Assembly (NCBI GenBank): GCA_016748015.1 | Contig: JAAOMT010000678.1 | Coordinates: forward strand, 352,389 to 416,388 | From: Geosiphon pyriformis uo1 | Lineage: Eukaryota > Fungi > Glomeromycota | DNA length: 64,000 nucleotides | Direction: 5' to 3' | In this document: piece by piece, positions 5,562 through 64,000 of the stretch | Numbering within the stretch: the stretch's first letter is position 1 | How the letters are laid out: every line of letters begins with the position of its first letter | Notes under the pieces: model-generated | The model's database searches: none | What the model saw: the letters and a program-made list of their open reading frames with translations, nothing else | Told to the model about the DNA's origin: nothing | Translations under genes and position numbers: made by a program

Positions 5562-8500
5562 ACAGTCAAATGGTTGTCTCACTTTGATTGGTCTTAATGG
5601 TTTACTGGGTTTTGTTCCTCCTCTTCTCTGACAAGCATCACAATTTTGAATATATTGGATAATATTTGGATACATTGATGGCCAATAGTATCTTTTTCTG
5701 GTTCTTTCTATTATTGCTTCTTTATGAAAATGTTCTGCTGTTAGATTTAAATGCATGTTGAACAATATTGTCTCTTTCTCTGGTTCTGTGATTACTCTGG
5801 TTGGTTAATCTGGATTCTTTTTGTTTTTCTGGTAAAGTATATTTCGGTGATTAATAAAATATTTTGATTGTTGTTTTATGTTGTTTTGTTCCTTTTGAGA
5901 TAATTTCTCCTTGAATAATTGAGTATTTATATAATATTAGAGTTGTTAGTATTTTTGTATATTCATCTTTTATTATATTTTTGGGTTGAAATGTTTTTAG
6001 ATTTGTCTTATTTGTGACAAACTGTTGGCATTTCTGTTTTTTTTTTTTTTTTGTAATATACTGTATAATTAAATAGTAAAAGTTCTATTTTCTATCTAAC
6101 ATGGCAATTGTCTCCAAATTTTTGCTTCTGGATTGAAGTCAATCTTTTGTGATCAGTGTACACATTAAACTATTAACTCAAGTATTTTTTCCATTTGATG
6201 ACAGCCCAATAGATAGTTAAGTGTTCCAGTGCTGGAGTTCTATAGATTATTTCAGCTGGACTTAAGCTTTTACTGGCATAAACTACTGGATGTTCTTGTC
6301 TATTTAGTCCTTTCTGAGATAATACTGCTCCCAATGCTTGACCAGATGCATTGGTTGTAATTATAAATGGTTTGCTATGATCTGAATAGATCAGTACTGG
6401 GGCTTGAATAAGTTTTTTTCTTAATGTGTCAAAAGCTTCTTGTTAAGTTTTTGTCCATTCATATTTGGTGTTTTTTATTTGGAGTTAGTATAGTGATTGA
6501 GCTATTTTGGAAAAGTTTTTGATAAAGTAGCAGTAGTATTCAGCAAATCCAAAGAATACTCTTAATTCTGTGAAATTATTTGGTACTAGAAAGTTTTTAA
6601 CAATCTTAATTTTATCTGGATCTGTTTTAATACTGTCTTTGCTTATAACATGTCCCAAAAACTTGAGTTCAGTTTTGCCAAAAAAACATTTGTTTGCATT
6701 TAATTTCAATCTTGCTTATCTGAGTCTTTCAAATACTTGTTGGAGATAATGCAAATAATCATTAAATGTTTTTGAGAACACATTGGTGTCATTTAAGTAT
6801 ACAATTACTGATTTCCATAATAGTCTTGTATAAACAATTTCTATAAGTTGCTGGAAAGTGGCTGGAGCATTCATTAAGCCAAATAGCATAACTTCGAATT
6901 CAAAGTTCCTTTTTTGTGTTATAAAAGCCGTTTTTTCTTTGTTTTCTGGTTTCATGGCTATCTGCCAGTAACTACTGTTTAAGTCTAATATTGAGAACCA
7001 TTTTTTTCCTCTAAAAGCATCGAAAAGCTCTTGAATTTTTGGAGTTGGGTAGCTATTTCTTTTTGTTACTCTATTCAGTTTCCAGTAATCTACACAAAAG
7101 CAGATTTTTCTATTCTTCTTATAGACTAATACTACTGGTAATGACCATGGGCTCATTGATAGCTAAATTAGCCTGTTGTTAAGCATCCAATTAATTTTTT
7201 AATGAATAATCTTGTGGCTGGCTGGTGGTACTCTGTATGCTTTTTGTTTAATTGGCATCACATTTTTAGTCTTAATCTGATGCTGGAAGATATCAGTTCT
7301 GCCAAATTTGTTTTCACTGGCAAAGATGTTATTAAAGTTGTTGAGTAACATTTTGAGTTGCATATATTATAGTGGGTCTAAATTTTCCAAGTTTATTTGT
7401 TCCAATTGTTTTGGTTGGAGTAGATAACATTCTTCTCATCCATATATTGTTTGAGATGTAATATTGACATATCTACACAGTTGTAGAAAGTCTGAAATAA
7501 GGTTTGGCAGTTGGTCTTTAATTTTGGTGGTTAGATATCCAATGTTGGTTCCTTCTAGTATCTCGATGATATCTTTCATGTTGTTGTAAATAGAAATTTT
7601 AATGTGACTGTGGTTTTTGGCTGGTATATGTAGATTAACTAATCCAATTTTTTCTGATTTACAAATTGTTGCTTCTGTCTCAAAAATCTGAATCTGATCT
7701 TTCACTTTTCTCTTTATGACTACTATGTACTAATTGTATGGTGAAATAAAAATTGATTGATGAGTGGAGATAATTTCTCTCTTGTCAATAACCTCTTCTT
7801 TTGCCATATTGACTGGTATCTCTATTCTACCTGTTGATCTAAATCTTTGTATTCTTCTAGCTGTAATTCCTGATTCTTTTCTGTTTCCTATTAATACTAA
7901 TTAAACTACTTTAATTAGAGGCAGGAATATTGCCTGTGCTATTTTTTTATTTGGCTCTATGATATAGGCCTTTTTTGAGTCATTTTGCAACATAGCAATG
8001 ATATTTCTCACATATTTTGTGTCAATTATTCCTCCTCTGATGTTGATTCCTTTTTTTACTAAATTACTCTTGAATGCTAATTGAACCATTGTTGTTGCTA
8101 GAATTTCCAGTGCTATTTTAAGATTAATGCAGGTACATAAGTGTGGTTCCAATTTGATGGCATCTTTTTCCAGATATCTTAGATCAAATCTTGCATCAAT
8201 ATTATGCACACATTCTGGCATAATGTCTTCATTGTTATTGCTAAACCATTTAAGTTCTTGCTTCTTGATAAGATCAGAAAGCACGATGTATTGTTTGGAA
8301 TTTGAATTGGAGTTTAAATTATCATAATTTTTGTTGCCATTTTAAACAAAGCTGGAACTGTTATTTTTGTTATCATCATTGTCAGAGTTTGAATTGGGAT
8401 TGAAAGTTGATCTCAATTTTGATGTGCAGCTGTTGATTGGTTTTTTCTCTTCCAGGATTGTGTAGATCATGTGTAGTGGTGGATTGTAAATAAGGTTACA

Positions 8501-14051: not shown

Positions 14052-14229
14052 AATAACTAATTAATAAGTAATTTGAAAAGAATAAAGAAAATTATTTTTT
14101 TTGGGTATAGAGTTTTTATTTGTTTTTGGGTTTAAATGTTTCTTTGTAATTATTTACTATTTTTATGTTTTTGTATTCTTTAAAAGAGTTATTATGAAAA
14201 ATGTTAAATTAAGTATTCAAGTTTGGTTG

Positions 14230-15632
14230 TTGTTCTATTATAATTATTGGTTCTAAATTTTAGAGAATATCTTTAGGATTAATTAAAGAGGACTGTGTAC
14301 TAATTTGTAGAATTAATGGTTCAGAAATGTTTTTGAAATGATAATGTTTCAATTGATTTTCATGTGCAACTTTTGCTAATATTTTGTGATCAAGTCTTAA
14401 TTTGTATGATCCATTGCTTAAAATTTCGTGAATATAAAATAGTCCATCACATTTATGTTCAAATTTTCCACTTTATTGTTTTTCAGCCTTAGTTCTGTGT
14501 AAGAAAACTTTATTTCCAACTTTAAATTTGTTGGTAACTGGTAATAGTTTGTTATCATGCCTTTCTTTTTGTAGGACTTGAGAGTGTTCAATATAAGAAA
14601 CTACTATGTGTTTTTTTTCTTCTAATATATTAAAAAAAGTATAGGCTCTTTTTTGGAGTGTTTTTTAAAAGTTTTCTTTATTGATTGGTTGCACTGGATA
14701 TGTTTCTACTGTGAAATTAATTGGTAATGTTGCTGTCCTTCCATAAATAAGATCAAATAGTGTGTGTTTCATAGTATCTTGTTTTAGTATTCTGTATGCT
14801 AGTAACACTGATGGAATAAATATATCCCATTCTTGCTCAGAATCTGTTGAGACTTTGGCTAAAGATTCACATAATGTTCTGTTGAAATGTTCTACAAGTC
14901 CATTTGTTTGAGAGTAATAAGATAATGATAAAAATCTTTTAATATTGAATTGTTCACAAATTTCTTGTATTAAGTTGTTCACAAAATGTGTTTTTTGATC
15001 AGATAAAAGTTCAATTGGGCATTTATGTCTACAAATAATGTCTTCATAAATGAAATTTGCTACTGATTTTGCATTTGCTCTTTGAATGGTTCTAGCTTTA
15101 AGCCATTTAATAAGATAATCTACTACAACTGTAATATAATGATTTTTTTGGGTTGTAATAGATAATGATTCGACTAAATTAATTCCAACTCTGTTAAAAA
15201 GTTGTTCAACTTTGATTGGATTTAAAGATTTTGTGGGGCAAGTTTCTTCTTTTTTTTGACAATTATCACAAAATTCTACATATTGTTGAATGTTTTTTTG
15301 CATGTAAGGCCAAAAATAATGTTCAAGAGTTTTTTGAATTGTTCTATCTCTTTCTAAGTATGCTAAAAAAAAATCTGTATACATGTTGTATAGAATTGTT
15401 TCTTTTTTATTTTCCTGTATTAATCTGAGTGATTGATTTAGGTTTCTGTGATTTTTGTAATAAATTTTGTTATGATATATGAAATATTGTTTAAATTGGT
15501 GTTGTAATCAATGTTTTTTACTTGGAGACCAATTTTTTGGCATGGTAAGAGTCTCCAAATAGTTTTTAATGTTGTTGTAATTTTTGGGATTTATTGTTGT
15601 TTGGTTATTTTGTTAGTAGATTGGTAAGTCAT
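14230..15632 (-). pseudogene. Stand-alone integrase ORF of B1
   Basis: ATG at 15632, 19 nt after the RNase H stop. Motifs YFWP..CDNCQ, LLSDQ and NGLVEHFNRTL. The left boundary is approximate. Confidence 0.85.
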
Positions 15633-18600
15633 AGTGAATTTGTTGTTGGTGTTAATCTTGTCTCATTCTTGAAAGACTATTAACATTGGTGTGTAGTTTT
15701 CTTGGTTTGTAATATACAATATATTTGTATTCTGCTAGAAAGTTATTTTATTAAGACTGTTTGATACTTTGTTCAGTTTTCTTTTTATTGAACCATTTGA
15801 AGCCAATATTGTCAATTATGATGTCAAATTCTTTTTTATTTTTCAAATATTGTTGAAAATGTTTAATAGCCCAAATAACTACAGCAGCTTCTAATTCAGT
15901 TGAGCCATATTTGAGTTCTGTTAGCTTGAGTGTTCTACTAGCATAGGCAATGACTTGTTCCTGGCTATTTTTATCCAATTGTGATAGAATGGCACCAAAA
16001 ACTATATGTGAAACATTAGTGGCTAGTTGGAACTGTTTGTTGAAGTCTGGATAAGCAAAAATTGGGGCTGTTGTCAATTTTGTTTTGAGAGTTTCAAAAG
16101 CTTTTTGTTGTTTTTCAGTCTATTTGTATGGTACATTTTTGTTGGTAAGATAATTAAGTGGTTTGGCAATTTTTGAGAATTTTTTTATGAATTTTTGATA
16201 GTAAGAGGTTAATCTTACAAATTCTTGTAACTTTGTAATATTTTTAGAAGTTTGAAAGTTTTTGACAGCACTGATTGTTCCAGGATTTGGTTTAACTCCA
16301 TCTTTACTGACAATGTATTCAAGAAAATTTAAGCTTGTTTTTCTAAAGTGACATTTTTCAATATTCAATTTTAATTCTGCTTTCCATAATCATTAAAAAA
16401 CTTCTCACAAGTAGATAAGATGGGCTTCAAAGCTTGGTGAATATACATCAGTATTATCAAAATAGACAACTATTAATTGCTATAAAAATTCTTTATATAC
16501 AATATTCATAAGTTACTGGAATATTGCTGGTGCATTACAGAGTCCAAAAGGCATAACATTAAACTCATAATTTCTTCCTTGGGTGGTAAATGCTGTTTTG
16601 GGTTGATTTTTTGGGTTCATTTCGACTTGTCAGTATTTACTTTCCAAGTTTAAAGTTAAGAAGAACTTGGCTTTTCTTAGAGCATCTAGCATGTTATTAA
16701 TTCTTAGAAAAAGGTAGGCATTTCCAATTGTCACATTGTTTAGTTAGTAATAGTTAACACAAAATCTAATATTTCCATTTTTTTTTAATAAGAACTACTA
16801 GTGAGACCCAAGGACTTCTTAATAGTTGAATCAATTCATTATTGAGCATTTTCTGAACTTTTTTTCTGATGAATTGGTGGCTGACAGGTGGCACTCAATA
16901 AGCTTGTTGATGTTTTGGTAGAGCATCTCTTGTGTGGATTTAATGTTGAACAATATCAGTTTTTCTAAGATCATTGTTGTTTTTTGCAAATATGTCAGCA
17001 AATTCAGCTATTAACTGTTTCAATTGTTTTTGTTGTTGAGGTTTTAAGGGACTCATGTTGATTTGAGAAAGTTTTTCTTCCAAAAGATGGTAGTTTTCAG
17101 TAGTAGCAATGATGTTTGAATTGGAAAGTAGAATATGTTTTACAATTTCGATGAAATTAGAAACAATTTGAGGGTTTTTATCCTGAAAGATATTACTATA
17201 TATAATTTCAATTTTTAATTTATTTAATAGAACAATAAGGTAGTTGTTGGGATTGTAAAATATAACTCAAAATTTTTTCATTCTTTTAGAAATATAAACA
17301 TTTGGGATTGAGATTTAATGCTTTAAACAAATTTGTTTATTGAATTCAAAGATTTGTTGAGTAGTAGTGAGTTTTGAGCAAGTGTAAATTTTGTGATGTT
17401 TTCCAAAAAGTAAAATAGTAATTGGTTGGAGAAGTTGAAAAATCTGGTGAAATTCATTTTGTGTATTGAGAGCTATGTTTACTAGAACTGTAAATCGTTC
17501 AATTAAACCAAAATCTTGAGTTTCTCTATCACTTTTTCCCAATTGTTTTCTGTTGTTAACTGATTGTAAATCCGAAATTTTAATTAAAAATAGGTAAATT
17601 GCTTGGGCAATCTTTTCAGCATGTTCAATCCTAAATGGTTTGTTTGTTTCATTCTGTAACATGATGGTAATGTCTTCAGTATATCCTGTATCTATAACTC
17701 CTCCTCTAATATTGATTTCTTTGTTTGTCAATGATAATCAAGAAACAATTTGTACCATTGCTCCTGGTGGTATTTCAAAAGCAATTTTAAGGTTGATTTT
17801 GGTTAAGAATTTTGGTTAAGGATTTTGGTTAAAGAACCAAAGTGTTTTTGCCAAGATATCTAAGGTCATATTTTGCATCAATTTTATGGGCTTTTTCTGG
17901 TTTCATTCTTTGTCTATTGTTGTCAAAGTATTTAAGTTGTATAGCAGGCTGGTTTTTAGTAAGATAGATTGGTGTTGTTGTGATTTCTTCTTTTGTTTCA
18001 GATTTCCCAAATTTAATTTCTTTCTGGTTATTTTTACTGGGCAGAAGAATGCTAAGAGCATAGCATTCTGAACACCATTTGTCATTACAAGGCATGATGT
18101 ATTCTTCACACAATTGAATGTTTATTTGCTCTAATTATTGAATTTGAGCTTTTTGGGTTGGGTATGTGTGGCTTGCAATTTGGTGATATGTCTCTATTTC
18201 ATCTTTATAGTTGAATCCAGCTAATTCCATTGTGTATTCAATGTACTCAGCTTCTTTCATTTGTTGGATATCTTTCTGTGTGGCTCTATTAATTAAAGCC
18301 ATTGCTAAATCAAAGATTATTTTAGCATTATAAAAATAGTGATAGAGTTTGTTAAAAGCACTGTTGTATGCTGCATCAAAAGATGTTCCTCTTTTAATTT
18401 TTTTCGAAATTAATAAGGCATATTGGCAGGTTTGATCACATACTCCTCCTCTTATTGCAATATCAATCCAGTTGCATTCTTCTGGTAACATATTTTCACA
18501 TGTAAAACAAGAAGTGTTGTCCTATTTTCCACTTTTTTTGGAATATTTAAACTGTTCCCTATGACATGCTTTACAGTAGTAATAGGTGCAAAGTTTTATA

Positions 18601-32200: not shown

Positions 32201-32974
32201 GCTAAAAGTTTAATGTATATACTGATCATAAAAGACTGACTTCAATTCAGAAGCAAGAATTTGAAGACAATTGTCATGCCAGATAGAAAATAAAATTTTC
32301 ACCATTTAATTATACAGTACATTACAAAAAAGAAAAAAATAATGGAAATGCTAATAGTTTGTTGAAAATGAAACAAATTTAAGAACATTTTAAACTAAAA
32401 ATATAACAAAATTTACAAACAATTGAAAATAAAAATATAACAAAAAAATGAACACACAAAAATATTAACAACTCCAGCACTATATAAATACTTAATGATT
32501 CAAGAAGAAATTATCTCAAAAAAAACAAAACAACATAAAACAACAATTAAAATATTTTATCAATTATCAAAATATACTTTATTAGAAGAACAGAAGAAAT
32601 CCAGATCAACTAACCAGAGTAATTACAGAACCAGAAAAAGAAACAATATTATTCAACATGCACTCAGATTCAACAGCAGGACATTTTCATAAAGAAGTAA
32701 CCATAGAAAAAACCAGAAAAAGATACTATTGGCCAAACATTATTCAATATATTCAAAATTGTAATGCTTGTTAGAGAAAAGGAGGAACAAAACTCAGTGA
32801 GCCATTAAGACCAATCAAAATGAGACAATCATTCGATTATATTAGAATTGACTTAGTCAGATCATTAATTATAACCAACAAAGGCAACAGATATATCGCA
32901 GTAATTATAGACTATCTTATAAAATGGCCAGAAGCAAAAGCCATTCAAAGAGCAGATGCAGAATCTGTTGCCAA

Positions 32975-34862: not shown

Positions 34863-35492
34863 ATGGAAATTATCAACAATATCCATATACTAACACAACA
34901 ATTCTTTCAACTGATCCAACAACAGAAGATAGAAATTACAATTAATCAACAAACCATCAGATACAAAAACACAAAAAAGAAACCACAAGATAAAATACAA
35001 AGAAAAACAGAAAACACTATTGAAAAAATAATTACAAAGGTGAAAGTAACAATAGAAGCACAGCAAAAAGTCATTCAATATTTAGAGTTGATAATAAAAA
35101 CATGGAATTAGTGAACACAACAATTTCCAAAAAACTTTTGTTACTTTCACTTGAGACAATACATAAATATTCAGAACTTATATATAGATAAAACAAAGTA
35201 ATTATTTGACACAGAAATATTACAACAACTTGAACAATTTGTGAGAAAGAACAATATAATCACACAAGCATGAGCCATCTATTGATTACAAATTGGATTT
35301 CAAGACTGGCCAAAAATTTTACTTAATCTAGTAATAGACACCATTACTGTCAACCAAATGGGAAAAATAACCAATGCCCAATTTGAAAAATTACAGAACA
35401 AAATAACTCAAGTAATTTTCAAAAAAAAAGTCCAAAAAATACTCAAAGACAGAGAATTAGAATTAGGAGATCTTGATAGAGTTCAATATTAA
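34863..35492 (+). pseudogene. ORF3 of family A (630 nt, 209 codons plus stop, unknown function)
   Basis: ATG in an A-rich context after the IN stop; the TAA overlaps the PPT. Other copies are 630-633 nt, or 623 nt with a deletion. Confidence 0.85.
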
Positions 35493-42526: not shown

Positions 42527-42645
42527 TTTATTTTATTTTATTTTATTTAATGAGTGCAGTCCAACCACTACCTAAATACATAAGATCAAACAGGACCCTA
42601 AATTAAGTGTGGCTCATGCTCTTTCTACACGTGACCAGCCACTCG
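42527..42645 (-). mobile_element. Tail-only LINE or SINE-like retroposon (~119 bp) with an (AAAAT)n tail
   Basis: GC-normal island homologous to 46075-46176 and 44338-44447. TSD AGTGTTTTT at 42518-42526 and 42646-42654. Confidence 0.8.
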
Positions 42646-45320: not shown

Positions 45321-46059
45321 GAATATTAAATCTTTAAATATATTAAAACTTTTAAATTTAATCAACAAATTATAATACCAATTTATAAACTAATTATTTA
45401 TACAACTATCTATAATAATATTATTCTTAGTTTCTAAAAAGTTTTTTTAAATATAAGATTTTTATTTTTTTAAAAAATTTAATTATTTTTATTAAGTAAT
45501 TTATTTATTGAATTTTTTTATAAAAAACAAAAGTATTAAAGTTTTGTTAGTGATATTATTTATTTTGTTTCTTAATAATAAAATATAAATTGGGTTTAAC
45601 TGTAATTAAATTAATTTATATTATTTAATTATAATTAATAAAGTCTAATATTGTTTTTTTGTTTTTGCAGTAAGTTATAATTTATTATAAAATTAAAATT
45701 TTTAGATTATATATTTTTTTTTATTAAACTATTATAAGATTAAATTATTATAATAATTAAATTATTAATGTTTTGTTTATACTATTTTTGGTTATTTTTA
45801 GATAAATTATAAATTTTTAATAGAATAAAAAATAAATAAATAAATAAAATTAATATTTTATTAATTATTATAATTAAAAATAATTAAATTAATTTATAAA
45901 AATTTTAATAACATATATAAATTATATTTGGCTTTGAATATAAAAAAACAAGTAAATTTTAATAACAAAATTTAAGACTTAAAATATGAATTTTAATTTA
46001 ATTATAAACAATAATATTTTTTAAATAATAGCAATAATATTGTATTTGTTAAAATTTTT

Positions 46060-46342
46060 TTATTTATTAAATATTTAATAAGCACAGTCTAATTACTACC
46101 TAAAGATATAAAATCAGACAAAATTCTAAGTTAAGTATGATTTATACACTTTCTATATGTAACCAGTCACTCAAGCTAATTAAAACAGTACTATACATCT
46201 AAATTACTTATCAAAAAAATATTATGCAAAAAACTAAAATCTAATCTGAACAAATAACAATATAAACCAAAGCAAACATGAATATCTAATCTAATACTAA
46301 AACTATAACATAAATTAAAAGACCACATAGATAACAGACTGA
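46060..46342 (-). mobile_element. 3' end of a third LINE (ORF2 C-terminus and tail), interrupted by A4
   Basis: The tail is homologous to 42549-42646. Upstream on the minus strand is a coding-like end, FSIRLDIHVCFGLYCYLFRLDFSFL. Confidence 0.7.
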
Positions 46343-49300
46343 TATTATAGATAATTATTTGGGATCTCAAGCAAATAACAAACTCATAATTTGGTGCTTA
46401 ATAGCTAATATGATGGTATAATCTTTAAAGATTTTCATGATCTAAAGGTTTTATTAATCTGAAAGTTTTGGGTTGGAGTTTTTTGTATAATAGACAGAAA
46501 TTCAATAATTGTTTTATTAGTAGCCTTCTGGAATTGTAATTCTATCAAATTTTTTTCTTCAGTGTAGTGGCTGGTTTATTCTAGCAGTCATGTCCTTTTG
46601 ATAAGCTATCTTCAATTTCCGAGTTCTCTATCCTTATTTTTGGGTCTTTTACCAGACTATTCTTAATGTTAATAACTTAATGCTTAATTCTTAATTAATT
46701 AGTAAACAACAAAAAACAACAAAAAAAAATAAAAAAAATAAAAGAAAATATAGAAACTGAAACCAAGGCAATTAAGTTAATATTCTATTAATAGCCATAA
46801 TTAAGAGCTATTGTTCTAGTGTGATTAAGTATAAGTTACTATTAACATAAAGTGTTGATAATAAACAATTGAATTAATATAATTAATAAATATATTTATT
46901 AATAGTGTGAATGTATGAATACTAATTAGAAAATAGAACTCAGATGTTTTCTTCTTTTTGCTTCTAATGCTATTATTATATATACATAATTGAGATTCTT
47001 TAATTCCTTAATTTTTCACACCAGAAATCCTGAAATTCCTGAAATCCTGCAATTTTTTATATAAGAATTCTGTAATTCTGGAATCCTGCAATTTCTTTAA
47101 GAAGAATTCTAAAATTCTCTATTTACTATGTTTACTTCTAATTGGCTAATTTATATGTTAATATAATTCCTATATTTTATGAGTAATATTATTCTCTCCT
47201 TTTAATATTGAGCTCTATTGAGATCTCCTAATTTCTCTAATTCTTCAAATTGACTTATATCTTGAACTTTTTTTTCGAAAATTACTTGTGTTATTTTAAT
47301 CTGTAATTTCTCAAATTGGGTATTGGTTATCTTATCTATTTGATTAGTAATAACTGTATCTATTTTTGAATTGAGTAGTATTTCTAGTCAGTCTTGGAAT
47401 TCAGCTTGTAATCAATATATTGCTTGTACTTGTGTGGTTAGATTGTTTTTTCCCACAAATTGTTTAAGTTGTTGTAGTATTTTTGTATCAAATAATCACT
47501 TTGTTTTGTCCATATATAAGTTTTGAATGTTCAAGTATTATTCCAAGTAAAAATAACAAAAGTTTCTTAGAAATTGTTGTGTTCACTAGTTCCAAGTTTC
47601 TTTGGTCAATCTTTGGTATGGTGTAGTTTTTGTTTGTATTTTTATTGCTATTTTTACTTTTAGAATTATTTTGTCAATGATGTTTTCTGGTTTTTTCTGT
47701 ATTTCATATTGGGATTTCTTCTTTGTATCTTTATATCAAATGATTTGCTGATTAATTGTAATTTTCATATTTTGTTGTTAAATTAGTTGGAAAAGTTGTT
47801 GTGCTAATGTGTAGATATCATCAGTAATTTCCATTTTTTTCTGGTATCTTTTGTCATATGTTGATTCTTTATATAGAGTTTTGATGTCTTAATTTAACAT
47901 GTTTGTATTGATAATTATTATTGGTTCTAGATCTTGTGGAATTTTATTTGGTTTGACTAGTATTTTCTGTACTCCCGATTGTAGAATATTAGTAATAGAT
48001 AATAATGTTATACTGGTTTTAGTTAATCTCCATGTGCTATTTTGGCTAAAATTTTGTTGTTTTATCTTAATTTATAAGCTCTATTTTCAAGAATTTCTTC
48101 TATGTAAAATGATCTGTCCCATTTGGGATTAAATTTTCTACTCCATTGTTTTTTTACTTTGGTATAATGTAAAAGTACTTTGTTTTCAATCTTGAATTCA
48201 ACTGGTTTATCTGGTAGTTGGTTATTATATCTTTTTTTTTGTTTTTCTTGTGACTTCTGAATATTATTAACTGTTTTTCACCATTTGTTTTTTAGTGTTT
48301 TTATCAAGTCATATGTTCTTCTCAACAATGTTTCTTGAAAATTCTCTTCTGTTATTGGTTTTGCTAGATATGTTTTGACTTTTATTTCGACTAATATTGT
48401 TATTGTTCTATTATATACTAATTCAAATAGTGTAGTTTGTGTAGTGTCTTGCTTTATTGTCTGATAAGCAAATAATACTGATAGTATAAACAAATTCTAT
48501 TTATTTTGGTTTTTTTGGCTGATCTTGACTATTGCTTCATACAATATTCTATTAAATTTTTCAATTAAGTTATTGGTTTGTAGATAATATGGTAATGACA
48601 ATAGTCTTTTGATTTCAAATTTTTGACTTAATTCTACTAATATTCTGTTTACAAAGTGAATTTTTTGGTTAGATAATAATTCTTTTGGACATCCATGTTA
48701 ACAAATTAAATTTTGATGAATGAATTTGGCAATGGATTTTGTATTTGTTTTTTGAATTGCTTTTGCTTCTGACCATTTAGTAAGATAATTCATAACTATT
48801 GTGATATATTTATTTCTTCTACTGGTTATTGTTAATAGTCTGACTAAGTCAATTCTGATTCAATTGAATGGTTGTCTCACTTTGATTGGTCTTAATAGTT
48901 TGCTAGATCTTGTTTCTCCTTTTTTCTGATATGCATTACAATTTTGAACATATTAGATAATATTTAGATACATTAATAGCCAATAATATTTCTTTCTGGT
49001 TCTTTCCATAGTTGCTTCTTTATGAAAATGTCTTGCTATCAGATCTGAGTACATATTGTATAGTATTGTTTCTTTTTTTGCTTCTGTGATTACTTTGAGT
49101 GGTTAATCTGAATCTTTTTTGTTTTTCTGATATAATATATTTTAATAAATAATAAAATATTTTAATTGTTGTTTAATAGTGTTTTATTTCTTTGAAGATA
49201 ATTTTTTTTAAACTACTGGGTATTAATATAGTGTTGAAGTTGTTGATATTTTTGTGTATTCATCTTTTTGTTATATTTTTGGGTTAAAATGTTCTTAGAT

Positions 49301-51518: not shown

Positions 51519-52366
51519 TGTTATAGTGATTATTTGGGGTCTCAAGTTAAATAACAAATCCATAACTTGGTGCTCAAAAGCTATTTGTGTTGATAATAAA
51601 CTGAAGGTTTTGGGATCTGAAGGTTTTCCAATGAGTCCTTTGTATAATGGACAGAGATTCAATAGTTGTTTTATTCATAGCTTCCCAGACTCGCAAGTCT
51701 GTCAATTTTTTTCTCAGCTTGGTGGCTGGCAATCCTCTGGTAAGTAATCCATATCTTCTATACATGTCCTACTCATTCACAGAGGTCTTTTACCAGACAA
51801 TCCTTGACGTCAGTAATCAGCACTTTTAATCAATTGGTTAGTGCACAATAACAAAATCACAGAAAATAAAGAAAATAACAAAAAATAAAGAAATGTAAAG
51901 AAATAAGCCAAGATGTTTGGTAGATTAGTATTCTGTCAATAGCCATGATTAAGAGCTATTGTTTTAGTGTGGTTAAGTATTAATTATTATCAACATGAAA
52001 TATTAATAGTGATGAGTGGATTGAGATATAAAATAATTATTTATTTGATGATTTTGTTTCTAGATTAAGGATTCTGTAGTATTAATTCTGTCTTTTTTGT
52101 TTCTAATACTACTGCTATATATACATATTTAAGATTCTTCAATTCCTCGATTCTTTACGACAAGAATCCTAGAATTCCTGGAATCCTGTGATTCCTTTGA
52201 GAGGAATTCTGAAATTCTGGAATCCTGTGATTCCTTGTTAGGGAATTCTGAAATTCCTGGAATCCTGGAATTCTTGAGAGGAATCCTGGAATTTCACATT
52301 TACTACACCTACTTTTGATTGGCTAATAATTATATTAATATATTTCCTATATTTCTATAAGTAACA
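51519..52366 (-). repeat. 3' LTR of A5 (848 bp)
   Basis: Direct repeat of 60768-61599, preceded on the minus strand by the PPT AAAAGAAGAGAA. Confidence 0.95.
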
Positions 52367-52379
52367 TTATTCTCTTCTT

Positions 52380-53002
52380 TTAATATTGAGCTCCATCGAA
52401 ATCCAACTCATTTAATTCCTCTTCTTGAAGTATTTCCTGGACTTTGTTTTCGAGAATTATTTGTATTATTTGGGTCTGTAATTCTTTAAATTGAGCATTG
52501 GTGATCTTTCCCAATTGATTACTGATAACCATATCCATTGCTTTGTTAAGTAATATTTCTGGTCTATTCTGAAATGCTGTGTGTATTTGGTATATGGCTC
52601 GGGCCTGTGTGGATAAGTTGTTTTTTCTCACAAAATGTTCTAATTGTTGTAGTATTCTTTTGTCGAATAATCACTTTGTTTTATCCGTATATAGATTCTG
52701 GATATTTAGGTATTGTCCCAAGTAAAAATAACAATAGTTTTGTAGAAATTGTTGTATCCACTAATTCCAAGTTTCTTTAGTCAACTCTTGATATAGTGAC
52801 TCTTTTGTCGATTCTCTTATTGTTAATTTTACTTTCATAATGATTTTGTCTACTGTATTTTCAGTTTTCTTCTGTGTTCTGGGTTGTAATGTCTTTCTAG
52901 TATTTTGATATCGAATGGTTTGTTGATTGATTGTAATCTTCATTTCCTGATTAATTGAAAGAGTTGTCATGCTAGTGAGTAAATGTTGTCTGTAATTTCC
53001 AT
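52380..53002 (-). pseudogene. ORF3 of A5 (7-nt deletion near the 5' end)
   Basis: Fragments 52761-52970 and 52380-52631; ATG at 53002; stop at the PPT. Confidence 0.85.
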
Positions 53003-53056
53003 TTTTTTGATATTTTCTGTCGTGTCTACTGTGTCTTTATATATTCTTTTTATGAA

Positions 53057-54439
53057 TCAATTTAACATGTTGTTGTCGATAATCATGATTGGTTCCAGAT
53101 CTCGTGGAATCTCATCTGGTTGGACTAGTATTCTCTGTACTCCTAATTGTAGAATATTACTGGTGGATGATAATATTATACTGTAGTATGATTTTAGTCA
53201 ATCTCTATGTGCTACTTTGGTTAAAATTTTGTTATTCAGTTTTAATTTGTAAGCTCCATTCCCTAGAATTTCTTCTATGTGAAATGGTCCATCCCATTTG
53301 GAGTCAAATTTTCCACTTCATTGTTTTTCCGCTTTGGTATGATGTAAGAGTACTTTGTCTCCAATCTGGAATTCAACTGGTTTGTCTAATAGTTGATTAT
53401 TATGCCTTTTTTTCTGTTTTTCTTGTAACTTTTGAATATTATCAGCTGCTTTTCTTTGTTTGTTTTCCAATGTTTCTATTAAGTCATATGTTCTTCTCAG
53501 CAATGTTTTTTGAAAATTTTCTTCTGTTATTGGTTCAGCTGGATATGTATTAATTTCTTTTTTTACTGGTAATGTTGCTGTTCTACTATATACTAATTCG
53601 AATGGTGTTGCTTGTGTAGTATCTTGCTTCATTGTCCGATAAGCAAATAATACTGATGGTATGAACAAATCTCATTCATCCTGGTTTTCTTGACTGAGTT
53701 TGGCAATTGCTTCACACAATGTTCTGTTGAATCTTTTGACTAATCCGTTGGTTTGTGGATGATATGGTGATGATAGTGGTCTCTTAATTCCGAATCTTTG
53801 GCTCAATTCTGTTAATGTTCTGTTCACAAAATGAGTTCCTTGGTCTGATAATAATTCCTTTAGACATCCATGTCGACAAATTAAATCTTGATAAACAAAT
53901 TTGGTAATGGATTCTGCATCCGCTTTTTGAATTGCTTTCGCCTTTGGCCATTTAGTAAGATAGTCTATGGCTACTGCTATATATCTGTTTCCTCTGCTGG
54001 TGATTGTTAATGGTCTGACTAGATCAATTCCAATCCAGTTAAATAATTGTCCCACTTTGATTGGTTTTAATGGTTCACTGGGTCTTGTTCCTCCTCTTTA
54101 CTAACAAGCATCACAATTTTGAACATATTAAATGATGTCTGGGTACATTGATGGCCAATAGTATCTCTTTTTGGTTCTTTCCATGGTTGCTTCTTTGTGA
54201 AAATGTCTTGCTGTTGGATTTGAGTGCATATTGAATAATTTTGTCTCTTTTTCTGGCTCTGTAATTACTCTGATTGGCTGATCTGGATTCCTTCTATTTT
54301 TTCGATAAAGTATATTTTGATGAGTGATAAAATATTTTGATTGTTGTTTGATACTCTTTTATTCTGTTTGAGATAAATTCTCCTTGAACTGTTGAGTGTT
54401 TATATAATGTTACAGTTGTTGATATTTTTGTATGTTCAT
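53057..54439 (-). pseudogene. Stand-alone integrase ORF of A5 (461 codons; HHCC, DDE and GPF; no chromodomain)
   Basis: Starts MNIQKY. Motifs H..H..YYWP..CDAC, IGIDL, LLSDQGTHF, NGLVKRFNRTL and KWDGPFHI. 1383 nt in a single frame. Confidence 0.92.
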
Positions 54440-54500
54440 CTTTTATTATATTTTCGTTGATATTATTCTGGTTTTGTTATATTTTTGGGTTGAAATGTTC

Positions 54501-57500
54501 TTAGATTTGTTTATTTATGACAAACCATCAGCATTTCTGTTGTCTTTTCTCTTTTTATAATATATAGTATACTTATATAGTGTGAGTGCCATTTTCCATC
54601 TCCAAATTCTTGTTTTTGAAGTGATATTAATCCTTTGTGATTTGTGTATACTTCAAACTTCTGATTCAAGTATTCTTTCCATTTCATGACTGCCCAGTAT
54701 ATTGCTAAGTGTTCTTGTTCCAGTGTTCCATAGTTCTTTTCGGCTGGTGTTAAACTTTTGCTGGCATATACTACTGAATGTTCTCTGCCATCTGGTCCTC
54801 TCTGAAATAGTACTGCTCCCAATGCTTGGCTGGATGCATTGGTGGTGATGATGAATGGTTTGCTGTGATCTGGATAGATCAGTACTGGAGCTTAGATGAG
54901 CTTTCTTTTCAGAATATCAAAAGCTTCTTGTTGACTTTCTGTCCATTCATATTTTGTATTCTTGTTTTGTAGTTGGTTGAGTGGCTGCGCTATTTTGGAA
55001 AAGTTCTTGATAAAACATTGATAGTAGCTAGCAAATTCCAAGAATGATTTCAGTTCTGTCATATTGGTCAGCACTGGAAAGTTCTTTACTATCTCTATTT
55101 TCTCTGGATCTGTTTTGATGCTGTCTTTGCTGACTATGTGTCCCAAGAATTTTAGTTTTGTCTTGCTAAAGAAGCATTTTGTTGCATTTAACTTTAGTCC
55201 TGCTCTTCTTAGTCTTTCGAACACTTATTGAAGATGATGAAGATAATCATCAAATGTTTTTGAAAATACATTGGTGTCATCCAAGTATACAACTACTGAT
55301 TTCCACAATAAGCCAGTATAAACAATTTTCATTAGCCATTGGAAAGTTGCTGGGGCATTAGTTAAGCCAAATGGCATTACTTTAAATTCGAAATTTTCTT
55401 CTCTAGTAGTGAATGCCGTCTTCTCTTTATTGGCCAAATTCATGGCTACTTGCCAGTAACTACTGTCTAAGTCTAATGTTGAGAACCATTTGTTCCCACC
55501 GAAAGCATCAAATAATTCCTGTATTCATAGAATTGGATAGCTGTCTCCATGAGTTACACTATTGAGTTTCCTGTAGTCTACACAAAATCAGATTTTTTCA
55601 TTCTTCTTACAGATGAGTACTACTGGTAATGACCATGGGCTCATTGATGGCTGAATTAGCCCATTGTCAAGCATTCAGTTTATCTCTTAATGGATGATCT
55701 CGTGGCTAGCTGGTAGTACTTTGTATGCTCTTTGTTTAATTGGCATTGCATCTCCAGTCTTGATCTGATGCTAGATAATATTAGTTTGGCCAAACTCATT
55801 TTCGTTGGCAAAGATGTTATTAAAATTGTTGAGCAACATTTTGAGCTGCATACGTTGTAGTGGGTCTAGATTTCCTATGTTCATTTGTTTTAATTGTTTT
55901 GGTTGAAGTAAATAACATTCATCTTGTCCATAGATTGTTTGTGATGTAATGTCAACATATCCACAAAGTTGTGGAAAGTCTGGAATGGGGTTTGGTGGTT
56001 GGTCTTCTATTTCTGTGGTTAAATATCCAATGTTGATTCTTTTTGGTACATTGATGATATTGCCAGTGTTGTTGTAGATGGGAATTTTTATGTGGCTATA
56101 GCTTTTGGCTGGTATGTGGAGATTGATCAGCCCAATCTCTCTTGATTCACAAAGGTTTGCTTCAGCTTCAAAAATCTGTTCTTGCTCCTTTTTCTTCCTT
56201 TTTATTGCTAGCATATACTGGCTATATGGTGAAATGGAAATAGCTTAACCGGTTGAGATAATTTCTCCTTGGCCAACAATTTTTTCCTCTGCTATATTAA
56301 CTGGTACATCTATTCTACCTGTTGACCCAAATCCCTGTATCTCTCTTGCTGTTATTTCTAATTCTTCCCTGTTTCCCACTGACATTAATTGAGCTATTTT
56401 AACCAGAGGCAGGAATATTGTCTGTGCTATCTTTTTGTTTGGTTCTATAATATAGGCCTTTTCTGAGTCATTTTGTAGCATGGCGATGATATTTCCTATA
56501 TATTCCACATCATTTATTCCTCCTCTTATATTAATCTCTCTTCTTGCTAAACTACTCCGGGATGCTAGTTGAACTATTGTTGTTGCTGAAATTTCCAGCA
56601 CTATTTTCAGATCAATGCAGGTGCGCAAATGTGGTTCCAATTTGATAACATCTTTTCCAGGATATTTCAGATCAAACCCTACATCGATATCATGTGCTCA
56701 TTCTGGCATAATGCCTTCGCCATTGTCACTGTACTATTTCAACTCCTGTTCTTTGGAGAGATCTAGTAGAGCAATGTATTGTTCGTAGTTAGGATCGAAG
56801 TCTGAATCATTGATATTTTCGTTGCCATATTGTGCAGAGCTGGAACTGGTGTTTTCATCATTGTCATTGTCAAGGTTTGAATTGGGATTGTAAACTAATT
56901 CTGATTCTGATATGCAGCTGTTAATTGGTTCCTCTTCCTTGGGGATTGTGTAGATCATGCGTGGTGGTGGATTGTAGATGAGGTCACACTCATCACAATA
57001 TTGGAAGTTACATGGAATTAAACAGTGGTAACATAACCTGGTGTTTATTTCTCCCAAGTGTTGTTCCTGTTTCTTTCTTGTGGGTGCTAATTCCTGGTAA
57101 TGTTTATGGAATTGCTCCAGATTTAGAAAATTTATGACTGGTTCTGGGTCCCAGTCAAGTTCTATGGGCTCTGGAGAATTGTTTTTGATTTCTTTGATCT
57201 TTTTGGGTGTTGCTCTTTCTATTTTGGTAATTGCTATTCTCCAAATTTTGTCATCATCATGTGGACAACTGTCCAGTTGCTACATGGCTCTTTTCCAGGC
57301 TGCCTCTATTGGGGTTTCTTTCCTTATCCAGTCACTTATTAAAATTGTGTATTGACACAATACATCGCATATTCTTCTACATTCAGGAATGTCATTCCAC
57401 ATCTCTTCATCTAGTAGGATCTTTCCACAAGCAAGACAAGATTGGTTATCCTATTTTTCTTGCCTCTTTGGTCACCCAAAGCATTCGAGTAGGCATGAAC

Positions 57501-60500
57501 AACAGTAGAACTTTGTTGTAGTGTGGTATTCCTTATTGTTACCACAGCATGCACCCATTGATGACAGTTTCTTGCCATAATTGACGCATACAAGTCTTGG
57601 CCATCGATAATTGGATTGTTGTGGAGTGTGGTGGGTGTAGGAATTATAAATGGTGACAGTTGGTGGCGTTCTTTCTTTTTTTTCTTTTTCTTTTCCCTTA
57701 TCTTTGTTCTATTCCCAACTTGAGGCTTCTTCTTGTTTGTTGTCAATCCAAATCAAATCATTGGTTTCCCAGGTAAGTTTGTTTGTTTGCTTTCCTTTCC
57801 CATTGTCATCCCAAGAGAGTATTGGTGGCAGCTTGTTGTGCTCTTTGTCAGCCCATGACACTTGGTAGGCTTTCCAGGTAGGTTTTGGTTTCTCTTCCTC
57901 GAAGTCGATTAGTGGTGCTGTGGTGTTGGTAGTCTTAAAGTGGCCACACATTGCTGGTACTTGCATGTGTTGTCCGTTCTGGCTGAGTTAAAGCTTTTGG
58001 GTATTCCAGTCCAGAGTGGTGTTCGTCTTGGACAGCCAGTCATTACTAACTAGAGCTTGATATTGGGTAGCTTCTATGATGAGTACTTTGATTGGTACTA
58101 TGATGCTGTTAATTTCGATTGGTAAGTCATCGATTTTGCCGATTAGAGTCTTGATTGCTCCATTAGCCATGATGATTCTGGTGCTAGCAGCTCAATCAAC
58201 TCAGCAACCTAATTGATCCATGAGTTGTTGTGTGATGATGCTGCCTGCTGAACCACTGTCAAAAATTAGTTTGATGGGATGGCCATCAATTTTCACATCA
58301 GTGTACATAGCGGTAATTGGCTTTTTTTTCAGTGTGGCTCTACTAAATAATGGCATGGTTGACAGTTCCTCAAGTTCGAATGAAAAAATGGCATCCAGAG
58401 ATTTGTCTTCCATGATTGTGGCAGGTGGAATGTTGCTGGTAGATGTTTGTCTGAGTTCCTGGTTGTTGGGTGTGGCATTTTCTGGAATAACCAGGAGACT
58501 TAAATAGTTTTGGGAATTCAGGTGTTGGGTGGTGCCAGTTTCCGAATTCCAAGAACAGAGTTCTGAGCTTTGGTGAGAGGAATTGGAGATCGGTTGATGA
58601 ACAACTATCGCCAATCTCCAATTTTGAGCAATTCTGGATCTTGGATTTCCTGATGTCATTGTAGCTAAGTTTTAGAGCAGTGTTTGGATTGATGGTTAAG
58701 TCTGATAAATTATTTGGGGCGGTGGCTGATAAATTACTGGAGGCTGCTGTTAATAAATTGCCGGTGGCTGTGGTTGATAAACTGGAATTTGATATACTAG
58801 TAGTTAATAGATTGATTGCTGCGTCATTGGCAGGTAAGTATTTTGATATTGGTCTTGGTTTTGATTTGGATAATGATTCAGAGTTTGGAACTGGCAATCA
58901 GGGTTTCTGTATTGATTTTCCGATTGTTGGTTGCTATAAGTATGACAATTAACTCGAATATGGCTTTGTTTACCACAGTTGTGGCAGACATGCGTTTCTG
59001 GCTGCCACGGCAGACTAGGTGCTGTTAAGGATAATGGACGTGATTGATTTTGGAAACAATTCATGTTTCCTGAATTATGGCGTTGTTGTGGTGTTTGATA
59101 TATGGCGCGATTGTTAGCTAAATACTCCTCTAATTTCTGATTAATTGATTCGCTAAAATGTTTTAATTTGGAATCCAATTCAGATAATCTATTTATTACT
59201 AGGTTTACTGCTTAGGCATGGTTGGCTTTTAACTTAGCTGCTTCAAAATTTCTGGCATGTGTAACTGCAGTAGGGAGGTCAACTGGATGCATTGGGCATA
59301 CTCACTGAAGGAAGTTACTATGCAAATTTCTAATAAATTGGTTTAAAATCTGTGGTGCTGTAAAATAGTCAGTTTGAATTGCTTGGATCTGGTACAGGTT
59401 TCTATGGAAGCATTCTAAGTAAGTAGTGACTACTTCAGTATCTTCTTGTTTAATAGTGGTGAAAAGGTTGGCTAACTTGTTGATGCTATTATTGTTGCTG
59501 AAATATCTTATGAATTCTGTCTTAAAGTCATTGAAGGTTTGAGATTTGACAGCTAGACTTTGATACCATGCATCTGTGGTGTCCCTTAGAAAGTATGGGA
59601 TGGCTTGAAGTACTTGAGTGTCATTCCACCCATTCACAGTAATGGCTTTCTCTATATCATTTAGCCATAGTTGCATGTTGTCTTCTTTGCTGGTAAAGTT
59701 GTCAAGTTTTGCGATTGGTACATAGACCATTGGATTTAAGTTGGGTTGTTGTGGTGGCTGTTGAAGCAGTTGTTGTTGTACTGGTTGTTAGAGTGGTAGT
59801 TGAAATGGCTGTTGTATGGATTCAGCTATTGGATTAATTGGCAGTTGCTTGATGACAATTACTGGAGATAAGTTTTGCTGATTAATTAATTCGGGGTTTG
59901 GATTGTTCTGCCTTTGATGATTCGGAGTTTCGATTTCCGAATTTTCTAAATTTAGATTTTGCTGAGCTTGAAAATTTGGGGTTTCAACTTCTGGGTTTTC
60001 AGTGATCAGGTTCTAGTAAGTAAATTCTTGATCTTCCGATTCTTCCTCTTCTTCCTCAGATAGTTCCCATGGGGTAACAGTTCCAAAGTCTGGCTGAGGT
60101 GGTGGTGATCAAATTCTTGATGGCGTTGGTGATTGTGATTTAAATCCTTTGAAGTATTTGCCATATGGTCCTAATAATTCTGTTTTCTTTTGTTTACTTT
60201 GGAATAGAAATTGTCCAAATGTTGATGCCATGTTTGATGTGGACACACTTATTGATAAAATGTTAATGGTGCTTCTGGGTGTATAGTGATAAGATGGATT
60301 GGTTGAGGATTCAACTTTTGTTTTCTTCCAAGTGGGTGGTTGTATTCTTTTAGGTATTACTGCTGATGTTTGTAGTTTTTCTTTGCCTTTATTAGCATAT
60401 GTAATTAGATATCTTTGTTGAGTGTGATGTTCAATTTTTTGGTTGATCTCAGTGATAATGGATGCAAAATTATGATTTGTTGGTAGATTGGTGTTTTGAA

Positions 60501-60744
60501 TTAATTCTCTATAGAAAGTTTCCCTTGCTGATTCAGTATTTACTGGTGTTCCTAACAAAGAGGAAATCTTTTCATTGACGTAGAAATTGAAGGCTGATTT
60601 GGCAGATATATGATTGTGGTTTAATCTCAAGTATTGACAATAGTATTGAAATAAGGATTTTGTGAATCCTAAATGGTTTGCTCCTATATTTTCTAATTCT
60701 GCCACTTTTGGATAGTGTTTGTTGGTACTGGTTCTCTGTAGAAT
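54501..60744 (-). pseudogene. ORF1 polyprotein of A5: N-terminal domain, gag (CA, CCHC), protease, Cys-rich domain, dUTPase, dUTPase-like domain, RT, RNase H
   Basis: Track fragments starting at 60705, 59730, 59178, 58659, 58170, 57966, 57057, 56640, 56214, 55443, 55224 and 54822 share one frame. Motifs CHNCGKQSHIRVNC, FDSGSAG and YLDD. Confidence 0.93.
56315..56690 (-). pseudogene. dut: dUTPase domain within ORF1
   Basis: All five trimeric dUTPase motifs are present: VGFDL, RSSL, GGINDVEYIG (GxIDxxYxG in other copies), KIAQ and REIQGFGSTG. Also at 7850-8200, 17500-17880, 30175-30550 and in A4. Confidence 0.92.
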
Positions 60745-60748
60745 TATA

Positions 60749-60765
60749 CCTCACAAGAAGCACCA
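60749..60765 (-). promoter_or_regulatory. Primer-binding site TGGTGCTTCTTGTGAGG
   Basis: Lies 2 nt after the 5' LTR and is complementary to a tRNA 3' end, CCTCAC...AGCACCA. Elongator Met or Ile(TAT) are plausible; the identity is not resolved. Confidence 0.85.
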
Positions 60766-60767
60766 AA

Positions 60768-61599
60768 TGTTACAGTAATTATTTGGGGTCTCAAGTCAAA
60801 TAACAAATCCATAACTTGGTGCTCAAAAGCTATTTGTGTTGATGATAAACTAAAGATTTTGGGATCTGAAGGTTTTTCCAATGAGTTTTTTGTATAATGG
60901 ACAGAGATTCAATAGTTGTTTTATCTATAGCTTCCCAGATTTGTAAGTCTGTCAATTCTTTTCTCAGCTTGGTGGCCGGCAATCCTCTAATAAGTAATTC
61001 GTATCTTTTGTATGTGTCCTACCCACTCGCAGGGGTTTTTTACCAGGCAATTCTTAATGTTAGTAATTAGCACTTTTAATCAATTGGTTAGTGCACAATA
61101 ACAAAATCACAAAAAATAAAGAAAATAACAAAAAATAAAGAAATGTAAAGAAATAAGCCAAGGCATTTGGTAGATTAGTATTCTGTCAATAGCCATAATC
61201 AAGAGCTATTGTTTCAGCATGATTAAGTATTAATTACTATCAACATGAAATGTTAATAGTGGAGAGTGAATTGAAATATGAAATAATTATTTATTTGATG
61301 ATTTTGTTTCTAGGCTAAGAATTCTGTGATATCGATTCTGTCTTTTCTGTTTCTAATACTACTGTTATATATACATATTTGAAATTCCTCAATTCCTTAA
61401 TTCTTTATGACAGAAATCCTGGAATTCCTAGAATTCTGCGATTCTTTTGAGAGGAATCCTGGAATTCTGGAATCCTGTGATTCCTCGTCGGAGAATCCTG
61501 CAATTCCTGAGAGGAATCCTGGAATTTTATATTTACTATGTCTACTTCTGATTGGCTAATAATTATACTAATATATTTCCTATATTTCTATAAATAACA
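60768..61599 (-). repeat. 5' LTR of A5 (832 bp)
   Basis: TGTTAC...ATAACA ends, adjacent to the PBS and the TSD. Confidence 0.95.
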
Positions 61600-61944: not shown

Positions 61945-64000
61945 TATTACAGATGATTATTTGGAGTCTCAAAGCAAATAACAAACCTGTAACTTGATGC
62001 TCAATCAATTATAATGATGTTGATTTTTGAAGGTTTTCGTGATCTGAAGGTTTTGGTAGAGTTTTTTGTATAATAGACAGAGATTTAATTAATAGTTTTA
62101 TCTGTAGTTTCCTGAAACCACAGTTTTGTTAATTTTTTTCTTAACATAATAGTCAGTAATTCTCCTGGTAAGATATCTTCAATTCTGAGTGTCTATCTTT
62201 ATTTCTGGATTTTTTACTAGTGCTATATCCTGATATCAGTATCTCTGTATGTAAATCTTTTTAATCAAGTTAGCAAAATAACAATAAAAATAAAGCAAGA
62301 AAAAAAAATAAGAAAATAAGCCAAAGCAATTTGTATGTTAGTATTCTGTCAATAGTTATGATCAAAAGCTATTGTTTTAATGTAATTAAGTATCAATTAC
62401 TATCAACATAAAGTGTTGATAGTGAAGAGAGGATTTGAAGTAGTGAATAATTATTTATTTTATTTGTAATATAAAAGGTTGCTTAGATTAAATCTAAATT
62501 GAGAGATCTGTTTTTTCTATTTCTGACACTACTGTTATATATACATAATTGAGATTCCTCAATTTCTCAATTTTTTACACCAAAAATTCTGGAATTCTTG
62601 GAATTCTGTAATTTTTTTTGAGAGAAATCTTAAAATTCTAGAATTCTGTAATTCCCTGTACAAGAATTTTGAAATTCTTAGAATTTCACATTTACTACAG
62701 CTACTTCTGATTGGCTAATTTATATGCTAATATACTTCCTATATTTTATGAGTAACATTATTTCCTTCTTTTTAATATTAAGCTTTGTCAAAATCTTCTA
62801 ATTCTAATTCTCTGTTTTTGAGCATTTCTTGAACTTCTTTTTTGAGAATTACTTAAGTTATCTTGTTTTGTAATTTTTCAAATTGGGCATTGGTTATTTT
62901 TCCCATTTGGTTAATGGTAATAGTGTTTATTGCTGGATTAAGTAGAATTTCTGGTCAGTCTTGAAATTTGGTATATAGCCAATAAATGGCTCTTGCTTGT
63001 GTGGTCAAATTTTTTTTCTCCACAAATAATTCCAGTTGTTGCAGTATTGTTGTATCAAATAATTATTTTGTTTTATCCATGTATAAATTTTGAATGTTCA
63101 AGTATTGTCTCAGATAAAAATAACAAAAGTTTTTTGGAAATTGTTGTATCTACCAATTACAAGTTTTGATAATCAACTCTTGATATTGGGTGATTTTTGG
63201 TTGTGCTTTTATTGTCAATTTCACTTTTGTAATTATTTTGTCAACAGTGTTTTTTGTTTTTCTCTGTACTTTATCTCATGATCTTTTTTTGGTGTTTTTG
63301 TATTTAATGGTTTGTTGATTGATTGTAATTTCTATTTCTTGTTGTTGGATCAGTTGAAAGAATTGTTGTGTTAGTGAGTGAATGTCATCAGTAATTTCCA
63401 TTTTTTTACTGTTTTTCATTGTATCTATTATGTCTTTATATATTTTTTTGGTTGATCAACTTGACATGTTTGTGTTGATGATAATGATTGGTTCTAGATC
63501 TCATGGAATCTCATCTGGTTTGACTAGTATTTTTTGTACTCCCAATTGCAGAATATTAGTGGTGGATGATAATATTATACTGTAGTATGATTTCAGTCGA
63601 TCTCTATATGTTACTTTGGCTAAAATTTTGTTGTTTCATCTTAATTTATAAGCTCTATTTCCAAGAATTTCTTTTATGTAAAATGGTCTGTCCCATTTGA
63701 GATCAAATTTTTCACTTTATTGTTTTTTCACTTTAGTACAATGTAAAAGTACTTTGTCTCCAATCTTGAATTCAATTGGTTTATCTGGTAGTTGGTTATT
63801 ATGTCTTTTTTTTTGTTTTTTTTGTGACTTTTGGATGTTATCAATTGCTCTTCATCATTTATTTTTTAGAGTTTCTATCAAGTCATATGTTCTTCTTAAC
63901 AATGTTTCCTGAAAATTGTCTTCAATTATTGGTTCTGTTGGATAAGTGTTAACTTTTATCTCAACTAGTAATATTGCTGTTCTACCATATACTAATTCAA
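61945..64000 (-). mobile_element. Family A copy A6: 3' LTR 61945-62757, ORF3 62772-63401, integrase C-terminus
   Basis: LTR ends, PPT and a 630-nt ORF3; inserted into A4 and continues right of the window. Confidence 0.92.

Follow-up and report, generated by a model that had tools for sequence, protein, structure and literature searches.

The Ty3/Gypsy-type long terminal repeat (LTR) retrotransposons analysed here encode their integrase (IN) in a separate open reading frame (ORF), which lies behind a stop codon closing the RNase H (RH) domain of Pol. They were found in a stretch of 64,000 nucleotides from the fungus Geosiphon pyriformis uo1 (contig JAAOMT010000678.1, positions 352,389 to 416,388), and this whole stretch is called the window below. 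The split is real and lineage-wide: the start position of the integrase is conserved among relatives, and the phase between the two reading frames varies. A preliminary description of the window had proposed that the integrase is separate by design, not by decay, and is expressed independently of Pol. Relatives with a stop-free RNase H and a separate integrase ORF bear out the separation by design.

The read-through integrase was used as the query, resulting in 1042 protein matches of 253–805 aa, and the best 120 (390–453 aa) were examined. Among these best 120 of 1042 homologues, the first residue is Met in 118, and 98 start at the position of the window Met. The start Met is kept although the proteins are just 43–51% identical to the query. 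The named homologues belong to Rhizophagus, Cetraspora and Diversispora, and several are from Rhizophagus irregularis. The HHCC and DDE residues are retained in 73–74 of 74 aligned integrases. In the IMG/VR database, three weak integrase loci were found. Three lineage members (L084, L085 and P0150) are deposited in bacterial metagenome-assembled genomes (MAGs), and they are most likely fungal contamination.

The DNA around the relatives comprises 162 loci, and the junctions were examined in L001–L130. RNase H followed by integrase is carried by 56 loci of L001–L130; 19 are split with an integrase Met of their own, and 28 have the two domains fused. The other nine (L045, L046, L066, L076, L078, L079, L101, L107 and L118), though flagged as split, appear to be decayed fused-type or unresolved copies, and were left out of the split count. 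RNase H is stop-free in 19/19 split loci. Their integrase is complete in 15 cases, ended by the contig edge in two and broken in two. The spacer between the RNase H stop and the integrase ATG ranges from −11 to +727 nt, and its length modulo 3 is 0, 1 and 2 in 4, 4 and 11 loci, respectively. The RNase H stop is TAA in 12, TAG in five and TGA in two of these loci. Two near-complete elements, L018 and L022, have terminal repeats that are 100% and 93–96% alike, and their gag, pol and IN frames are long and open.

In the window, all five copies covering the junction carry TAA after the RNase H end (5997–5999, 32380–32382, 49295–49297 and 54501–54503 in family A, and 15652–15654 in family B), as described previously. 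The distances from TAA to the ATGs then assigned (30, 65, 31, 61 and 19 nt), the A at position −3 of those ATGs, and a second in-frame stop in 4/4 family-A spacers were found again. The length differences among the family-A spacers correspond to tandem duplication of one A-rich unit, regardless of phase. The integrase start placed at 15632 in family B had to be corrected, as the ATG there is out of frame with the integrase and is followed by a stop after 13 codons. The family-B integrase profile begins at the codon 15594–15592, now ATA, and the corrected spacer is 57 nt long, in phase, and contains a second TAA. Thus, family B alone is ambiguous, and a decayed fusion is possible there. The consensus LSR-I/M-RQ-I/D proposed for the RNase H end is a restored reading; the ends as read are LSQIRQI, LLKMKQI, LL*IRQI, LS*INKQI (with a slip) and LSRMRQD. 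In the copy at 54501, deletions of 16 nt and 1 nt shift the RNase H frame ahead of the stop, so the homology of its stop rests on alignment.

The junction stops might have arisen by CAA-to-TAA decay in a Pol that was once fused in the normal way. Deamination of the window is heavy (C>T 11%, G>A 13%); its CpG ratio of 0.14 indicates strong CpG loss, and its TpA ratio of 0.79 shows no excess. The in-phase family-B spacer with two TAA codons also fits this explanation. When decay was scored as background over 788 aligned pol and IN codons, however, a stop was present in all four family-A copies at 0/788 codons, and in three of the four at 2/788. These results indicate that the junction stop is not ordinary decay. 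At sites showing only CAA or TAA in the family-A copies, TAA occupies 19/100 cells, and the chance of TAA in 4/4 copies is ~0.1% under independence, the copies being not fully independent. The spacer length also varies out of phase, and the relatives with a stop-free RNase H share the split using TAA, TAG and TGA. Decay of a fused Pol was rejected for the lineage, and we regard it as hardly credible.

The stop is present in both window families, as had been claimed. They are not independent cases, because A and B group as sisters in the integrase tree (SH-aLRT, an approximate likelihood ratio test, 99), which indicates one origin. The tree was calculated for 50 rows by a quick IQ-TREE run with LG+G4, and long branches are present. 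The window copies belong to a group made up of P0159 and 21 split rows (SH-aLRT 95), and a wider set contains all 27 split rows and three fused rows (SH-aLRT 87). The split label changes three times on the tree, versus 16.9 times when shuffled. A single gain of the split and a few re-fusions would fit this. Five loci (L102, L104, L105, L120 and L121) served as the outgroup only. They are distant elements on MAG contigs with the integrase upstream of reverse transcriptase (RT), an order which we take to be Gmr1-like.

Fused forms were searched among proteins of 806–2300 aa. Five close rows bear RT or Gag, and four of them (P0157, P0158, P0160 and P0161) are eukaryotic gene models. The RNase H end is missing in 3/4 of these models, and the first helix of the integrase is missing or replaced in 4/4; such loss is expected of predicted joins. 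The fifth, P0159, has a continuous RT-RH-IN-ORF3 frame on a single contig and is nested among split elements. It is likely a re-fusion. An in-frame, stop-free RH-IN linker had been named beforehand as the arrangement that would speak against the split. It does occur in P0159, as an exception inside the clade, and the core inference holds.

As for expression, we favour the reading that ribosomes restart on the full-length RNA after the RNase H stop and so translate the integrase, and judging from sequence we put its probability at about 0.58. Pol ends at RNase H, the integrase has an AUG of its own, and a small conserved ORF3 follows. Ribosomes would restart or re-enter near the RNase H stop on the same genomic RNA. 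In some members this would occur at a direct stop/start overlap (TAATG, ATGGATAA), and in others, the window included, across a short ATG-poor spacer, as in elements of the long interspersed nuclear element (LINE) type for ORF2. In one subclade, a conserved spacer hairpin would aid start-site use. To enter the particle, the integrase may bind RNA or Pol/Gag, in the style of foamy-virus Pol; alternatively, it may meet the cDNA after synthesis. ORF3 may serve as an accessory partner of the integrase.

The junctions are mostly close, with stop and start between −11 and +5 nt apart in 5/19 and no more than 163 nt apart in 14/19. In the 16 short spacers, one ATG is present against 8.2 expected (P 0.003), or two with the corrected family-B spacer. 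The IN-ORF3 junctions are close too, with one ATGA overlap. If a Pol–integrase fusion were still made, it would need readthrough, frameshifting or a stop-removing intron. Readthrough is possible in 2/17 loci, which have in-phase stop-free spacers of 63 nt, and an overlap allowing a frameshift is present in 3/17. An in-frame GT-AG intron sparing the RNase H end was found in 4/17 loci, with strong donors in two, and in none of the other 13/17. The four public gene models that join the parts and the continuous P0159 inside the clade also accord with a fusion, but the former look like predicted joins, and the start Met is kept across the divergent homologues. As no readthrough, frameshift or intron route is common to the 17 loci, the most likely start of the integrase is an AUG of its own, and a fusion is very improbable.

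At another position, between the protease (PR) and RT, a single in-frame TGA-CTA is present in one subclade (L003:870, L022:3358, L027:1585). It probably serves programmed readthrough, in an uncommon place, TGA-CTA at this stop being presumably a readthrough signal. At the RNase H stop, TGA-CTA occurs in 0/17 loci.

Several observations weigh against restarting ribosomes. Five spacers of 278–727 nt contain 34 ATGs versus 35.7 expected; these long spacers are not ATG-depleted and thus fit poorly with simple scanning from the Pol stop. Restart of the TURBS type (termination upstream ribosome-binding site) requires stop and start within ~20–30 nt, according to the accessible text of PMC10275272. 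Spacers exceed 30 nt in 13/19 loci, and those of the window measure 30–65 nt. The TURBS core TGGGA is present in just 2/19 loci and in 0/5 window copies, and no excess RNA structure was detected upstream of the stop (mean z −0.11). A review rates reinitiation past a long ORF and long spacers as improbable, in the part available (PMC3894237). A purine at position −3 of the start is found in 15/19 loci versus 76/114 internal Met codons, showing no enrichment. The hairpin is missing from the window and from 28/39 loci. Finally, the ATG depletion is also compatible with the leader of a separate mRNA.

Such a subgenomic mRNA for the integrase (and ORF3), arising from an internal promoter or by 5'-leader splicing, is an alternative that we consider unlikely but worth keeping in view. 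It would explain the long ATG-rich spacers, in which no ATG occurs over the final 60–151 nt ahead of the AUG. The ATG-free leader contains YAG acceptor-like sites in 13/19 loci and no YAG in 6/19; TATAWA is present in just 4/19. No splice acceptor or TATA box common to the 19 split loci was found, and the recurrent stop/start overlaps would be pointless on a separate mRNA. Foamy viruses, as far as the accessible text of PMC3196705 goes, offer a likeness: Pol is made apart from Gag and is packaged by RNA and protein contacts. In foamy viruses the separation concerns all of Pol, integrase included, whereas here it concerns the integrase alone.

The hairpin of ~40 nt is found in 11 loci, after the upstream stop and before the integrase AUG, from which it is 3–37 nt away in the 10 loci measured. 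The integrases of the 11 loci are 55–69% identical. The main 5-bp stem is paired in 55/55 cells, with both-side changes in 5/5 pairs, and the variable stem columns are just 36% identical. The whole hairpin shows 27 cells with both-side changes versus 8.4 in shuffled sequences (reached in 0/500 shuffles), and slid controls pair in ≤46%; since the structure was derived from the same 11 sequences, these controls lean in its favour. A model of the hairpin recovers only 11 loci among 39, all of them training sequences. It finds nothing at the window junctions, where the best match has 17 bits and lacks the main stem, and the hairpin pattern has 0 matches in IMG/VR. Rfam covariance models, searched against 12 loci to E 10, gave eight weak matches, none at the hairpin. 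The hairpin points to possible RNA-level control at the junction in one branch. In another subclade, short GGACAAA-type words are shared between spacers in few copies (L002:870-905, L006:1000-1040, L015:1490-1510).

The covarying hairpin, which follows the stop unlike TURBS, would also suit internal entry of ribosomes at a structured element in the spacer, with upstream translation not needed. It is confined to one subclade, and the A-rich spacers of the window are unstructured and lack it. A length of ~40 nt is small for an internal ribosome entry site, and the hairpin could alternatively bind a protein or serve in packaging. Internal entry appears improbable to us.

The small helical ORF3 is located downstream of the integrase in many relatives, often running into the purine tract, in agreement with the earlier proposal of a third cistron. 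The window ORF3 is conserved in the four family-A copies (62–75% to the first), and it matches the ORF3 family of the relatives weakly (profile E 0.0017, probability 16%). Thirteen members gave no match to Pfam below E 0.013. The predicted model is confident, with a pLDDT of 92.8, and a fold search resulted in no clear match (best Z 5.0, root-mean-square deviation 3.3, 69 aligned; Foldseek E >0.1). The ESM Atlas rows for a closterovirus coat (0.94) and a phage translation repressor (0.92), each with <170 shared features, were set aside as weak leads only. The fusion in P0159 hints at a functional link between ORF3 and integrase. In L018, an extra coiled-coil-like ORF of 266 aa (7458-8255) lies between the integrase and the ORF3 homologue (near 8586-9176). 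It is conceivable, and we propose it tentatively, that this is an old, undescribed lineage of fungal LTR retrotransposons with truly polycistronic expression, in which Gag-Pol, integrase and a novel-fold ORF3 are made by successive restarts on one RNA. One branch would be steered by a new RNA element, and the integrase would enter the particle without a protease-released fusion, possibly via ORF3.

The DNA of the window is AT-rich and harbours a cluster of decayed LTR retrotransposons. The focal family-A element occupies 51519–61599 on the minus strand with a 4-bp target duplication (GTGT), and the four family-A copies are 76–81% identical. Its integrase ORF consists of H2C2, the rve core and an SH3-like end. 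The features are listed in Table 1. A dUTPase and a Cys-rich region lie between the protease and RT in both window families (56245–57750 and 17315–18520, both minus strand). The region 38000–46500 has ~10% G+C and contains remnants of the same elements, with decay far beyond the rest of the window. Among the relatives, an acidic Cys/His-rich extension of ~270–590 aa follows RNase H (L004:3494-4438, L084, L007, L025, L030, L022:4942-6702), and that of L004 or L022 has no match in Pfam.

Table 1. Features of the window elements, and loci of relatives carrying the spacer hairpin
Feature	Position	Strand	Remarks
5' LTR, focal family-A element	60768..61599	-	TG...CA ends; 87.6% identity with 3' LTR
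Primer-binding site, TGG-start, abutting 5' LTR	60749..60767	-	Identified from sequence
Gag-PR-(Cys-rich region)-dUTPase-RT-RNase H, single frame	54504..60750	-	Decay stops and two small deletions near end
Conserved TAA closing RNase H, focal copy	54501..54503	-	
A-rich ATG-free spacer, 61 nt	54440..54500	-	Second stop; internal tandem duplication
Stand-alone integrase ORF, 460 codons, one frame	53057..54439	-	8 decay stops
ORF3, ~205 codons, reaching polypurine tract	52386..53002	-	
3' LTR, focal element	51519..52366	-	Purine tract before
ORF3, further family-A copy	62781..63401	-	
ORF3, further family-A copy	34863..35489	+	
ORF3, further family-A copy	47211..47834	-	
Family-A junction	5964..5999	-	TAA, spacer of 30 nt containing another in-frame TAA, ATG
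Family-A junction	32380..32450	+	TAA, 65-nt spacer, ATG
Family-A junction	49261..49297	-	TAA, 31-nt spacer, ATG
Family-B junction	15592..15654	-	TAA, 57-nt in-phase spacer, second TAA, out-of-frame ATG (15632)
Family-B integrase, decayed	14209..15594	-	End coordinate approximate
Hairpin loci	L004:4463-4500, L005, L007, L011, L012, L020, L023, L025, L030, L034, L085		Before integrase ATG

The elements resemble Ty3/Gypsy (Metaviridae) in the LTRs, primer site, purine tract, short target duplication, Gag and the order PR-RT-RH-IN, and among solved structures the integrase is best matched by Ty3-G Gag-Pol (7q5b, E 4e-51). They differ in that the integrase is outside the Pol polyprotein, ORF3 is conserved downstream, and no chromodomain is matched; the chromovirus chromodomain PF00385 is absent from the precomputed domains of the 120 stand-alone integrases and from the integrases scanned. 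A fungal survey describes Pol as one PR-RT-RH-IN polyprotein, in its accessible text (PMC3248453). Integrase as the C-terminal part of Pol is the usual Ty3/Gypsy state and not the basis of classification, and the elements are filed as a variant lineage. A Ginger-like DNA transposon, having an integrase without RT and terminal inverted repeats, was rejected, as the window has RT-RH and LTRs. In several loci lacking a visible RNase H, the same pol extension is present upstream, which likewise speaks against a Ginger-like element.

The closest working analogy for the expression would be ORF2 of the non-LTR elements (UAAUG coupling in SART1; LINE-1), where a second ORF on one RNA is reached across an overlap or spacer. 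ORF2 translation there depends on ORF1 translation, according to the accessible parts of PMC2881922 and PMC3894237. Non-LTR elements have no capsid, so the packaging problem does not arise, whereas here an LTR element splits Pol itself. The stop/restart sites of RNA viruses (TURBS of calicivirus and influenza B; fungal CHV1 and HvV190S) are similar to the overlapping or adjacent stop-start in 5/19 relatives. In contrast to TURBS, most spacers here are longer than 20–30 nt, TGGGA and upstream structure are not shared, and the conserved structure follows the stop. The DIRS elements also have their integrating enzyme in a separate ORF, as far as described in the accessible text of 10.64898/2026.05.21.726589; it is a tyrosine recombinase in elements without true LTRs, whereas a DDE integrase in an LTR element is found here.

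The literature searched describes no LTR element in which a DDE integrase has an ORF of its own; Repbase, GyDB, subscription journals and supplements (including the transposable element library of arbuscular mycorrhizal fungi in PMC11952901) were outside the search and may contain one. Papers on transposable elements of these fungi do not describe the split in their accessible text: PMC11952901 and PMC11075540 lack the word 'integrase' there, and 10.1101/2021.03.30.436303 has it once, in a filter list. The accessible portions of PMC6431247, PMC13465315 and PMC5911963 contain no precedent. The separate integrase is apparently an undescribed change in LTR retrotransposon gene expression, in a Ty3/Gypsy variant.

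Textbook LTR retrotransposons and most retroviruses package the integrase through its fusion to Pol. A large lineage with near-intact members drops this fusion, and this raises the question of how eukaryotic ribosomes reach a second and a third long ORF. The covarying spacer hairpin is a concrete target for this question. A second question is how a separate integrase finds its cDNA, for which an unusual route of particle entry would be needed. The genes of the lineage carry wrong annotations, namely lone transposase, bacterial MAG protein or intron-joined Pol model, and active copies would be counted as dead by pipelines requiring an intact RT-RH-IN ORF.

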